Shown: one piece after another, positions 29,960 through 56,064 of the stretch
Layout: each line of letters starts with the position of its first letter
Numbering within the stretch: position 1 is the first letter of the stretch
NCBI GenBank assembly: GCA_951406725.2
Contig: OX597830.1
Span: 18,848,001 to 18,912,000 of the forward strand
Reading direction: 5' to 3'
Source of the DNA: Octopus vulgaris
Lineage: Eukaryota
Length of the DNA: 64,000 nt
The notes under the pieces: generated by a model
What the model was told of the DNA's origin: nothing
Seen by the model: only the letters and a program-made list of their open reading frames with translations
Databases searched by the model: none
Translations under genes and position numbers: made by a program

Positions 29960-30220
29960 TAATAATAAATATTAGGGAATAAATCCAAATTTACAGGGAA
30001 AAATCAGATTTAGGATCGAATCCAATTTTATAGTAAAATGTTATATAATATTAATTAGAGACAAAACCACTATTATGCAAATCAAACAAAGAAAGACTTA
30101 ATCCAATACATAAAAAATTTTATATAAATTAAATAAAATTAAATTCGCCACTACAATTGTTTCGTGTCTCTTCTAAGGACATTCATCAGGTGGTATTCAG
30201 ATCTTCTATTCAATTTTAAT
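29960..30220 (-). mobile_element. PLE pLTR-type remnant in a (TA)n tract
   Basis: Hammerhead at the 5' end, AT-rich body, (TA)n on both sides; 3' terminus resembles 47350-47400 in the opposite orientation. Confidence 0.55.
30148..30193 (-). ncRNA. Minimal type-I hammerhead ribozyme
   Basis: Minus strand CCAC-CTGATGA-aTGTC(cttagaaga)GACAc-GAAA-CAATTG-TA-GTGG; palindromic stem III; A.C mismatch at the base of stem II. Confidence 0.8.
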
Positions 30221-30596
30221 ATATATATATATATATATATATATATATATATATATATCCCTCTCTCTCTTTCGGAGAGGCACTGAGCAGCTATACGCAC
30301 ACATACACACACGGCAGTAACTTCCACCTACCGAATTCAATCACAAAGCTTTGGTCGACTCGGGGCTATAACGGAAGACACCTACCCAAAGTGCCACGCA
30401 GTGGAACTGAACCCGAAACCATGTAGTTGGGAAGCAATCTCCCCAACCACACAGCCATGCCCATATATATACACACATATATATATATATACATACATAC
30501 ATTACATACATATATGTATAGGTGTAGGTGTACTCTACAACAGCTGCATTACAGTATACACTCTTGTAGTCAATATAAGTGTATAGTTCCAAATGT

Positions 30597-30976
30597 GGAG
30601 GCGCAATGGCCCAGTGGTTAGGGCAGTGGACTCGCGGTCATAGGATCGTGGTTTCGATACCCAGACCGGGCGTTGTGAGTGTTTATTGAGCGAAAACACC
30701 TAAAGCTCCACGAGGCTCCAGCAGGGGATGGTGGTGATCCCTGCTGTACTCTTTCACCGCAACTTTCTCTCACTCTTACTTCCTGTTTCTGTTGTACCTG
30801 TATTTCAAAGGGCCGGCCCTGTCACTCTCTGTGTCACGCTCAATATCCCCGAGAACTACGTTAAGGGTACACGTGTCTGTGGAGTGCTCAGCCACTTACA
30901 CGTTAATTTCACGAGCAGGCTGTTCCGTTGATTCGGATCAACCGGAACCCTCGTTGTTGTAACCGACGGAGTGCTT
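30597..30976 (+). mobile_element. SINE family C, tail type Y
   Basis: Same head and middle as 29088 but a different 3' half; TSD ATAGTTCCAAAT on both sides. Confidence 0.85.
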
Positions 30977-31534
30977 CTAAATAGTTCCAAATAGTCATTT
31001 GCATCTTTATTCAATTAATGTCATTGACAGCACACACACACACACACACACACACACACACACACACACACACACACACACACACACGTGTGTATGAATG
31101 AATATGGGTGTGTACTTCATGTCTGAACTCACTGGATACAGCATTAAAATAATAGGATGGTTCTGAACAATAACAATTATATCCGTAAGATCTCATCAAC
31201 ACAGTGTCAATGATATTTGCTTGGATGCTTATGCTGTTAATGTACCGTATCTCATTGTATTTACAAAACATATTGAATTTGTTTTTTCTTTTTTTTTTGT
31301 ATCATATCATGCATGAAAACATTTGTGTTTGAATTGTGTGTGTTTTTGTTGTTGACAAGGTTAGTCAGCTAATCTCTAATCTTTGAAGGTCACACACAAC
31401 TAACAAAGTGTCTAGTGTTTAGCAAGTTTGAGGTAGTTCTTTTCTAGAATCCACTGGAAATATAGGCATGCAAACATTCATGCACACCATACACACACAC
31501 ATCATCATCATCATCATCACCATAACCAGCAGAA

Positions 31535-53600: not shown

Positions 53601-54965
53601 TGCAATCACTTTGACACCTGACACCTGTGCACCTATTCAGGTAAAGCCGATCTGATAAAAGGAGTGACCTCATACATTTGATTGTTAGAAACAAACCATT
53701 TGTGCAGGTAATTCACCAAAAGCTGAATTATATTGTCTTCGATTGGAGAGGTTTATCATATACATGTGTGTGTGTGTGTGTATGTGTGTGTAAATGTATG
53801 CAAATAAATGTGAATGTATGACTGTGTGTACGTATATCTGTGTCTGAAACAGCTGTAAGGAGTAGTTTATGAATTTCAGTAATTTATAATATGACTATTA
53901 AAATATGTATTTGTATTATTTTTATTATTATATTACCTATTGGTTTATATAATGTTATGTTTGATTTTGATGTTCTCATTTGTATAATTAATAAACAATG
54001 TAATATTGTAATATCCGTAAGTTGATGAACGAGATGAATTTGTTTCTCCATTTTCTTATTTGTATTATGAATTTACGGTAAAAATATTTTTTACCTTCAC
54101 CTATTTAATACAATAAATGAATTAATTGCATTGCAATTAAAAACATTTATGTATTAAGAATTTGGGTACTTTACCAACGGTATATTGGATAACTGATATC
54201 CCATAGTGGGTTACATTCATAACCCCTATCTTACTTTGTATTATATATATATATATATATATATATCATTGTTCTGTCTTTTACTATTTTTACTTTTTTA
54301 TTGTTTTTTCTGTTTTGTTCTCACTGTCCTGTTCTTGTTACCACTTTCACCCTCTGCAAAAAATCCCAAATTTTATTTAATTTGCTTTGCGAGAAGGACT
54401 GTTTCAATGAAGTCACGTCTTGTCCTTACCTTCAAAACGCGGAGTAGATGAAACAGGGACAACTGAAGAAGGGGAATATTCCTTATGTTGTATGTCTCGT
54501 TTCTCTGTTTTTTTTCGCTGTTTGAAAAAAAGTTCGTTTCTATGTTTTTTGTTTTTGTTTTCATTTCTCATTGTGTTCAACGTTTTTTTGATGTCCTGTA
54601 CCCATATATGCATGTATATATACATATATATGTAGGTGTGTACATGTATGTATGTATGTATATATGCATACATTTATATATTATTTATATACATATATAT
54701 ACACAAACTATCTCAACTTTACACACAACTTACAAAGGTACTTTATTTCTTTACCTTATTTATATTGTACTTTATATTGCAATTTACTCTATAATCTCTA
54801 TTTATTCATTTATTACTCTAATTCTGTTTACCTAACCTATCTTATCCCCAACCAACCTGCAAACCCCTTGCCCAAATACATATAAATACAAACCCTAAAT
54901 AGTATCATTCAGTCTGCTGTGATGAACTTACAAACAAACATACATAACATCTAGGGGTATATTTT

Positions 54966-55050
54966 TTCCCTCTGAAGAGATTATGCTCAGAAATATGAAT
55001 TTAATATTTAATTAACTTCACTGCGTACAACTGAAACAGCTGTAAGGGAA
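54966..55050 (+). ncRNA. Type-I hammerhead ribozyme with long stem/loop II
   Basis: TTCCCT-CTGAAGA-(54 nt including TATGC/GCGTA pairing)-GAAA-CAGCTG-TA-AGGGAA: perfect 6-bp stem I, palindromic stem III, GUA triplet. Confidence 0.75.
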
Positions 55051-56064
55051 TATGATCAATTTATTGCTCATTATAAACTCTCATCAACTTCAAAATTTCT
55101 ATTTTCTTCTTTTTTCTTTGCGTTAATATAAACTACAGTTTATATACAAACCTATTATTTTAAGGAAATCAATTCCCCCGAGCACCTTTTCAAAGTCCAC
55201 CTGTTTAACACCCGTGGACATGTTTACAAAATCAGAAAACAGCACAGCTCCCATGACTTTTGGAAATATTTTTTCACGCTAAGAGTTGCTGAAGCTTGGA
55301 ACAGACTGCTGGCATCAGTTGTTAGTTGTCAGAGCACTGCATCCTTCAAAACTTCCATGCTTCCTGAGATTCGCCAACACTACACCTGATTTTCTCCCCT
55401 CCATACACACGCAAACATGTATCTGACTCATACACTGTTCACTTCCCAGACATTTATACATTAAGGCACATGCTTTATATGCACTTTTGACAAGTTGTGG
55501 TGCACCTGAGCACTGATCGGCCACGTTCGGATGGTGCTTTTTACGTGCCATTGAAAATAGAAAAATAGAGTATAATGGATGTATATGCATATCTCAGGAG
55601 TTATTTCTCTTCCTTTAGCACCACATCCAACCTGTTAACTATTCATGAATACAATGCTGGCTCTGAATGCTATAGAAAATCTGCAGATAAACTTCACTGT
55701 ATATATACAAGAGTGTGTGTGTGTGTGTGTGTGTGTGTGAAGGTGCACGGCTTCATGGTTAGGGTGTTGCACACACGATTGTGAGATTGTGGTTTCCATT
55801 CCCAGACCAAGTGTTGCATTGTGTTCCTAAACAAAACACTCTACTTCATGTTGCTCTGTGATCATTTTGCCATCTGCCATGTGGTACGTCGTGCACCTGT
55901 ACAGGTAATGTTGATAATATGATGGAGGGAGCAAGTTTATATGAATGCTACCATTTGATCACTATAAACAAATTATCTGTTGTGCAGCAAAAAATTGCAG
56001 AACCCTCATATGTTGTCTCATGACAGGAGAGTCCATATATATATATATATATATACACACAAAT

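Follow-up and report, generated by a model that had tools for sequence, protein, structure and literature searches.

A stretch of 64,000 nucleotides from the genome of Octopus vulgaris (assembly GCA_951406725.2, contig OX597830.1, positions 18,848,001 to 18,912,000 of the forward strand; the whole stretch is called the window here) contains a series of type-I hammerhead ribozymes belonging to repeat families that we designate A to G, including E2. Most of these hammerheads are known biology: those outside family B are ordinary debris of Penelope-like elements (PLEs) in a known arrangement. The new part is family B, a retrozyme-like unit with the insertion footprints of a PLE. The overall account that we favor, with moderate confidence, is that the hammerheads are the ends of several PLE families plus one protein-free repeat of 352 nt, and that all were inserted at TA repeats by the reverse transcriptase (RT)-endonucleases of PLEs, the repeat from a circular RNA of its own making. 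Since insertions of one to nine units of the protein-free repeat carry Penelope-type ends, the repeat is likely to be a self-cutting RNA circle that is copied by Penelope enzymes.

Insertion footprints of family B

The family B unit is 352 nt long, has no open reading frame (ORF), and occurs in circular permutations, with its hammerhead cleavage site after position 134. Among the families of the window, this one (the motif at 44415) is the only one shown to be ORF-less and self-contained. From each family search, the 40 best-scoring loci were used. For family B, 65 loci were assembled, and removal of 10 duplicates left 55 distinct insertions with 90 arms; these insertions span 0.1 to 8.9 units, the shortest arm being 22 nt. 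The 5' neighbor of a B unit is either a previous unit, joined seamlessly, or flanking DNA (55 insertions and 30 array loci), and the same holds for the sister families described below (50 loci); no ORF of the family's own was found at any of these places. PLE fragments lie beside 5 B loci and differ from locus to locus, and the only one that stands in line with the repeat (L199/L249) ends in another hammerhead. The Neptune-type ORF found there, directly behind a B array, was rejected as a parent of family B, being separated from the array by (TA)7 and having its own, different hammerhead end.

The 3' ends of the arms fall at two main sites: 38 of the 90 arms end at unit positions 304-310 and 43 at 349-352, with 9 ending elsewhere. 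The stretch of about 45 nt between the two sites, which together account for 81 arms, corresponds to what is called the tail in PLEs. Two-arm inverted insertions (33 in all) nearly always combine the two sites, with 26 cases of a tailed and a tailless arm, 1 of two tailed arms, 0 of two tailless arms, and 6 in which one end lies elsewhere. In the reconstituted PLE system, RT starts at two internal sites, the sequence between them forms the tail, and both target strands are cut and extended (PMC11167929). The two-site ends of family B match these two start sites and fit mobilization by PLE enzymes.

Arrays of family B reach 8.9 units (as measured with a dimer query) and carry a hammerhead in each 352-353-nt unit. 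Those of 3 to 8.9 units mostly keep PLE-type termini and (TA)n flanks; the longest array (L190) has non-TA flanks. At five loci (L183, L196, L200, L204 and L205), the two arms of an inverted insertion each extend across unit junctions. The mismatch at subfamily-diagnostic sites is 9% between the arms of one insertion versus 28% between insertions (minimum of 300 resamples, 18-19%). Within a subfamily of 353-nt units (46 units from 11 arrays), units differ at 2.9 positions per 294 nt within arrays versus 4.8 between arrays, a contrast reached in 0 of 2000 permutations. Of the 62 variants in this subfamily, 50 are confined to a single unit and 4 are fixed throughout every array in which they occur; another 2 are limited to one array, where only part of the units have them, and the last 6 are shared between arrays and only partial. 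Two apparent accumulations of 5' ends were discarded: one at the cleavage site, which was gone once 90 arms were considered (4 at positions 131-139), and one at unit position 1, which was a BLAST boundary artifact.

The unit is strongly self-paired and its ribozyme has been conserved. The fold of the B monomer has a z score of -8.5 when linear and -8.1 when circular, and the circular values across family B and its sisters are -8.1, -6.1, -5.6 and -5.4, with -2.5 for one old sister copy; families A, C, D, E and F range from -0.1 to -1.5, while family G reaches -6.4 because of its inverted arm. The two sister families, of 357 and about 352 nt (2026 and 1664 candidates), are collinear with B at 64% and 57% identity, and both are likewise permuted and without a linked ORF (50 loci). 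Stems I-III of the B hammerhead covary, and a 17-row alignment, which carries no phylogenetic control, shows two-sided changes at 15 of the 52 consensus pairs. The young 357-nt sister family has a compensatory U3-A8 core in place of C3-G8. Such covariation of core and stems over 57-64% identity argues for lasting selection on the ribozyme. The cleavage nucleotide itself is A at 28 B loci, C at 25, G at 1 and T at 1.

The nature of the template

Judged from sequence, family B likely fits a retrozyme of the kind lacking long terminal repeats (non-LTR), mobilized by PLE enzymes from a candidate circular RNA template. Its probable route, in which we place the same moderate trust as in the overall account, runs from a tandem transcript through dimer cleavage and circle ligation to rolling-circle copying by a PLE protein. 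Tandem copies would first be transcribed, and hammerheads paired through their palindromic stem III would then excise the 352-nt monomer. The monomer would be ligated into a self-paired circle with a predicted junction at 134/135; a PLE protein would prime at unit positions ~307 and ~351 and roll round the circle, so that arms of 22 nt to 8.9 units could all arise from one monomer. With a confidence only a little above even, we would extend this proposal to the sisters and regard them, together with B, as a long-lived lineage of hammerhead circular RNAs of about 355 nt, copied in rolling-circle fashion by PLE protein and inserted straight into TA repeats by twin-primed reverse transcription.

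Several findings sit uneasily with these proposals. Hammerhead cleavage is dispensable in the reconstituted PLE system, where uncleaved RNA is the substrate (PMC11167929), and a linear multimer could therefore template the same B insertions. The 5' ends of B are not piled at the cleavage site, a distribution that fits a circle or uncleaved RNA equally well. One array (L201) combines two subfamily variants as a mosaic, and of the 12 shared variants, 6 lack fixation in at least one of their carrier arrays; both observations weigh against a single circular template, because conversion or template switching would be needed. TA repeats flank the 5' side of just 10 of 21 single-orientation B insertions, and 3 of the 17 alignment rows behind the pair count include flank at one end. 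The restriction of each search to its best 40 copies means that long, intact copies are over-represented. Finally, no PLE ORF was found within 1.5 kb of families D, E and G (12 loci each). Contigs of three sequencing runs that we guessed to be RNA cover the B unit and its junction; DNA covers both as well, and hence no conclusion is drawn from them.

Perhaps the most serious competitor, possible though doubtful, sees in family B a minimal derivative of a PLE, which is copied from uncleaved linear multimeric transcripts of its tandem copies and inserted by PLE enzymes, with no circle involved. Hammerhead mutants of the anole PLE insert undiminished in vitro, and RNA-seq data for that element have no reads that start or end at the cleavage site (PMC11167929). 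Genomic arrays of up to 8.9 units could serve as donors, and a permuted tandem product would look identical whichever template was used. However, a linear donor yields no more units than it contains itself, so arrays would need to regrow from one unit, and the variants fixed throughout particular arrays show one unit multiplied. The lasting selection on the ribozyme also speaks against this reading.

An unlikely alternative is that PLE enzymes made only short B insertions, which later grew into arrays by local unequal crossing-over, local array expansion being one scenario in the preprint of Li, Clavereau and Pollet (10.64898/2026.07.22.740005). Local expansion would homogenize units too, and exchange among units is suggested by the mosaic array L201 and by the two variants that only part of the units of a single array carry. 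Against this stand the five insertions in which both arms cross unit junctions, the arrays that still begin and finish at PLE-type termini, and the 50 variants limited to one unit. Rolling-circle copying of the B monomer remains our preferred explanation.

Families of the window and their links to PLEs

Every hammerhead motif of the window represents its own genome-wide repeat family, with 827 candidates for A (30148), 2058 for B (44415), 853 for C (32421), 3480 for D (45128), 981 for E (54966), 2838 for E2 (53846), 2627 for F (36059) and 2692 for G (56231). Seven window copies are mutually dissimilar except for one marginal 25-nt match (E2 lay outside this comparison). All families have fixed 3' ends and often a second, inverted arm, the tail being confined to one of the arms, and the hallmarks of PLEs (5' truncation, an inverted arm, a tail at one end, and a microsatellite target) recur across them. 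A (TA)4 tract lies within 26 nt past the 3' end in 14 of 15 arms of A, 15/18 of C, 72/85 of B, 7/12 of E, 8/18 of F, 10/21 of E2 and 5/14 of D, compared with 5.6% of background positions. By the known mechanism, the PLE endonuclease would cut AT-rich DNA, both strands would prime reverse transcription at two internal start sites, and synthesis would usually abort inside the 3' untranslated region (UTR), leaving solo hammerhead ends.

The initial annotation of this DNA, made from the letters alone, had proposed a single high-copy, multi-family system of non-autonomous ribozyme retroelements targeting (TA)n. Several unrelated, high-copy families of PLE type do favor (TA)n, but a single non-autonomous system is unsupported, because C, E2 and F are the 5'-truncated 3' ends of autonomous Hydra-clade PLEs, which is known biology, and A is related to the pseudo-long terminal repeat (pLTR) of a Hydra-type element. 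For family C, 7 of 20 walked loci have the end of a GIY-YIG ORF upstream on the same strand, and downstream each of the 7 matches the window element; the upstream query gave 48 candidates versus 853 for the 3' end, as expected from 5' truncation. An endonuclease ORF end lies upstream of E2 as well (Table 1). Family F has an endonuclease protein match upstream at 1 of 20 walked loci (L360), and the upstream DNA of that locus matches L352 and L365, both of which carry a family F end. A relative of family A at 84% identity flanks an ORF on both sides in the arrangement pLTR-ORF-pLTR (L412 and L414; 822 codons in L412), and family A itself is, on this likeness, apparently a short derivative of a Hydra-type PLE pLTR.

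The view that all of the families are non-autonomous ribozyme retroelements thus becomes very improbable, being contradicted for C, E2 and F. What speaks for it is that the window has no PLE protein match in a tblastn search with two PLE proteins, which bears out the earlier remark that no RT or GIY-YIG ORF is visible there, and that the 5' ends of some families are fixed: young A copies are monomers with one common 5' end at 12 of 12 loci, and the 5' ends of D and G likewise look fixed. These three families (30148, 45128 and 56231) may be short non-autonomous elements, or may be products primed in a 5' pLTR.

The ORFs of L412 and L413 contain a DKT motif, a CxCX5C linker, and CxxC plus CxH around a conserved E/N, the same features that, together with insertion at (TA)n, mark the Hydra clade of C-terminal endonuclease-bearing (EN+) PLEs (Craig et al. 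2021, PMC8557442). The octopus elements combine these marks with (TA)n insertion; their likeness to Hydra-1_Obim, the Hydra element of Octopus bimaculoides, was judged by eye. The initial annotation had left open whether such families were already catalogued. The kind is, since Hydra-1_Obim is described with a hammerhead and a (TA)n preference in the supplement of PMC8557442. Other Hydra-type elements of the O. vulgaris genome carry a hammerhead with a long stem II and a palindromic stem III 200-600 nt past the stop codon, and intact Hydra-type ORFs of 822 and 833 codons are present. Long asparagine-rich inserts separate RT and endonuclease in the Hydra-type ORFs of L412, L297 and L298, and some ORFs of this type (L297-L299) have no CxCX5C linker. 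At another locus (L086:966-1130), the 3' part of a family F-type hammerhead is fused to a family A-type 3' end; the sequence suggests module exchange between PLE ends.

Neptune-type elements are present too. A 776-codon ORF of this type has many genomic copies; the young element that carries it shares no homology with any family of the window and has a different hammerhead core. In one very young copy (L126:1679-5450, minus strand), a second ORF lies upstream and overlaps the 776-codon RT-EN ORF in a different frame; the 3' UTR consists of more than 1.5 kb of microsatellite-like sequence, and the hammerhead combines a U3.G8 core with a GUU triplet. Other Neptune-type families (L249 near 3500; loci L092-L116) appear, by eye, to have a U3-A8 core.

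Hammerheads of the window

The window was scanned with a descriptor of the CUGANGA ... GAAA ... NUH core and stems I-III, using block-wise dinucleotide shuffles as control. Four complete type-I hammerheads pass the strict scan. In four more motifs (54972 +, 36140 -, 56193 + and 59422 -) stem II is decayed or bulged, and the core, stem I and the palindromic stem III are intact. Five full folds had been listed in the initial annotation; those at 30148, 32421, 44415 and 45128 are the four of the strict scan, while the one at 54966 (core 54972, cleavage nucleotide 55044) fails it because the base of stem II has decayed. The motif at 36059, set down as degenerate, in fact has an intact CUGAAGA core at 36140 behind a 58-nt stem II region, and the decayed part is the 3' strand of stem II. 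The two 3' halves reported earlier (32604 + and 53846 +) both exist, but the first is the inverted arm of the 32421 insertion and no separate family, and the motifs at 56193 and 59422 were missing from the list. The label "minimal" was only partly right, because 4 of 8 listed hammerheads carry stem II inserts of 54-95 nt (32421, 54966, 36059 and the complete genomic copies of 53846, the last having a CUGAYGA core and a 10-bp stem II). A GUA triplet is present in every window copy, as had been noted. Of 11 further copies of the 45128 family elsewhere in the genome, 9 have C rather than U at position 4 of the core.

Chance occurrence in AT-rich DNA can be dismissed with near certainty. Rfam gave no hammerhead among the matches listed (150 of 207, E<=1), those listed being only microsatellite-driven microRNA models, but the shuffled window gave a mean and maximum of 0 strict matches in 200 shuffles, and 0 again in a further 150, against 4 in the real sequence, and the families differ by compensatory changes. 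Shuffling and covariation, both put forward as checks by the initial annotation, thus agree with its recognition of genuine hammerheads. A genome sample of forty 10-kb stretches, placed at round coordinates on 30 contigs (the assembly has 2.80 Gb in 227 contigs), gave 5 motifs in 400 kb versus 0 in 40 shuffles. Extrapolation gives a genome-wide total of ~35,000 intact motifs (Poisson range about 11,000-82,000), and the window, with 4 in 64 kb, is richer than the sample.

Table 1. Hammerhead-bearing elements and hammerheads of the window (w/o, without; positions in the window)
Feature	Position	Strand	Remarks
Family A, monomer of ~260 nt, 5' end fixed; hammerhead, tail of ~77 nt; (TA)n tract on either side	29959..30219	-	Genomic copies 94-99% identical
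Hammerhead	core 30189, cleavage nucleotide 30152	-	Complete fold in scan
Family C, main arm and tail, 70-nt stem II region; 5'-truncated 3' end of Hydra-type PLE	32294..32559	-	Upstream GIY-YIG ORF elsewhere
Hammerhead	core 32512, cleavage nucleotide 32424	-	Complete fold in scan
Family C, inverted arm belonging to the insertion of the main arm; tailless, with 3' half of hammerhead	32572..32700	+	95% to main arm
Family F, main arm w/o tail, core 36140, long stem II, cleavage site 36064	36026..36207	-	
Family F, inverted arm (= tail)	36207..36262	+	Query 1-57 matches family tail, opposite orientation
Family B, inverted arm, 22 nt of tail, unit positions 350-329	44345..44366	-	
Family B, main arm, unit positions 45-307 of 352-nt unit	44364..44626	+	G-to-A change in stem II
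Hammerhead	core 44421, cleavage nucleotide 44453	+	Complete fold in scan
Family D, old (~80%) short element, then (TG)n	44993..45270	+	No ORF link found
Hammerhead	core 45134, cleavage nucleotide 45163	+	Complete fold in scan
Family E2, copy truncated at 3' strand of stem II	53844..54245	+	Endonuclease ORF end upstream in 3/20 walked loci
Family E, AT-rich 3' end, core 54972, cleavage 55044	54700..55180	+	Last ~75 nt of family absent
Family G, inverted tailed arm and ~107-nt main arm, core 56193	56063..56280	+	
Family G, second copy, 3 kb from first and facing it	59335..59550	-	95% identical to first copy

The best full-length G copies elsewhere in the genome are at most 84% identical (among the best-scoring loci), versus 95% between the two window copies; the sequences would suggest a local inverted duplication, gene conversion or one insertion event. 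Further debris of PLE type lies at 46970-47420 (an A-related 3' end, 71%, with an inverted arm), 54440-54490 (a decayed remnant of a short-stem hammerhead) and 47860-47940 (a tail from another hammerhead family). Elsewhere in the window, an intron-containing gene at 9541-11292 (+), presumably of hsp70 type, has three exon-like ORFs and ends in EEVD. Tandem arrays of 47-nt and 33/66-nt units at 40434-42657 (-) have long frames rich in Thr/Pro/Lys or Gln/Tyr/Lys/Pro, possibly an exon of a mucin-like or structural protein. Two direct copies of about 1 kb, 98% identical, of a stretch containing a short interspersed nuclear element occupy 51270-52594, and a 196-nt tandem duplication lies at 49850-50220.

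Discussion

How animal retrozymes move, and what hammerheads do for PLEs, are questions addressed in several papers: PLEs were named candidate mobilizers in 2020 (PMC7229834), co-occurrence was added as an argument in 2026 (10.64898/2026.07.22.740005), and cleavage was found dispensable in 2024 (PMC11167929). Family B brings to these questions a retrozyme-like unit whose insertions, which reach nine units, bear the two-site tail and the inverted arm of PLEs. Priming is predicted at unit positions ~307 and ~351 and the circle junction at 134/135, and the genome also contains intact ORFs of candidate partners (Hydra-type ORFs of 822 and 833 codons and many copies of the 776-codon Neptune-type ORF); these footprints, sites and ORFs make the circle-templated model directly testable. 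If the model is correct, genomic footprints would link the circles of animal retrozymes to the PLE machinery, and a 352-nt template would be available for a reconstituted test of why PLEs retain hammerheads.

A repeat annotation of the octopus genome lists 31 recently active PLE families, and the word "ribozyme" is absent from the available part of that paper (PMC13282606). Our literature search found no paper describing retrozymes in cephalopods or retrozyme termini of PLE type, although the supplements of PMC7229834 and of the 2026 preprint may describe either.

The window families resemble the Hydra clade (PMC8557442) in the hammerhead at the 3' end, the (TA)n target, the inverted arm and the one-sided tail, and the hammerhead of the coral element that precedes Hydra-1_Obim in the supplement is, by eye, much like that of family D. 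They differ from the published clade in that 3' UTRs are about 1-3.4 kb here, while published elements are generally below 3 kb in total; the RWK motif reads KWK; stem II often has inserts of 54-95 nt and a mismatched first pair; and tails reach ~77-90 nt versus 30-40. Hammerheads at PLE ends are known as solo copies of many unrelated families (PMC4209133; reviewed in PMC6765202). The octopus ones are likewise of type I with a palindromic stem III, mostly solo copies of truncated PLEs from many unrelated families in one genome, with opposite-strand pairs 100-700 bp apart and with the U3-A8 core variant that PMC4209133 also reports. Unlike the published ones, they mostly have a mismatched or wobble first pair in place of G10.1-C11.1 plus an extra nucleotide after A9, stem III palindromes of 4-7 nt, and, in families D and B, often a C at core position 4.

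Family B is closest to the non-LTR retrozymes of animals, of which those of mussels are 350-390 bp long and expressed as circles (Cervera and de la Pena 2020, PMC7229834). Its ORF-less 352-nt tandem unit with a type-I hammerhead, its GC content below 50%, its strong self-pairing, and its range from monomers to multimers all agree with that group. Unlike non-LTR retrozymes, it has no visible target-site duplication, and its PLE two-site tails, inverted arms and TA flanks set it apart from the retrozymes as described in the available parts of PMC7229834 and the preprint. Retrozyme circles have been demonstrated as RNA in mussel, coral and axolotl (PMC7229834; 10.64898/2026.07.22.740005), whereas family B is known here from genomic DNA; the preprint argues for mobilization by PLEs from co-occurrence and pLTR homology, with no mollusc among the species sampled in its available part. 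A mechanistic parallel is offered by PAc Poseidon, which has been reconstituted in vitro (Frangieh et al. 2024, PMC11167929). It shares with family B two internal RT start sites that bound the tail, an AT-rich target, and the extension of both strands. PAc Poseidon differs in being an autonomous element with its start sites within the ORF, and in copying a linear template.

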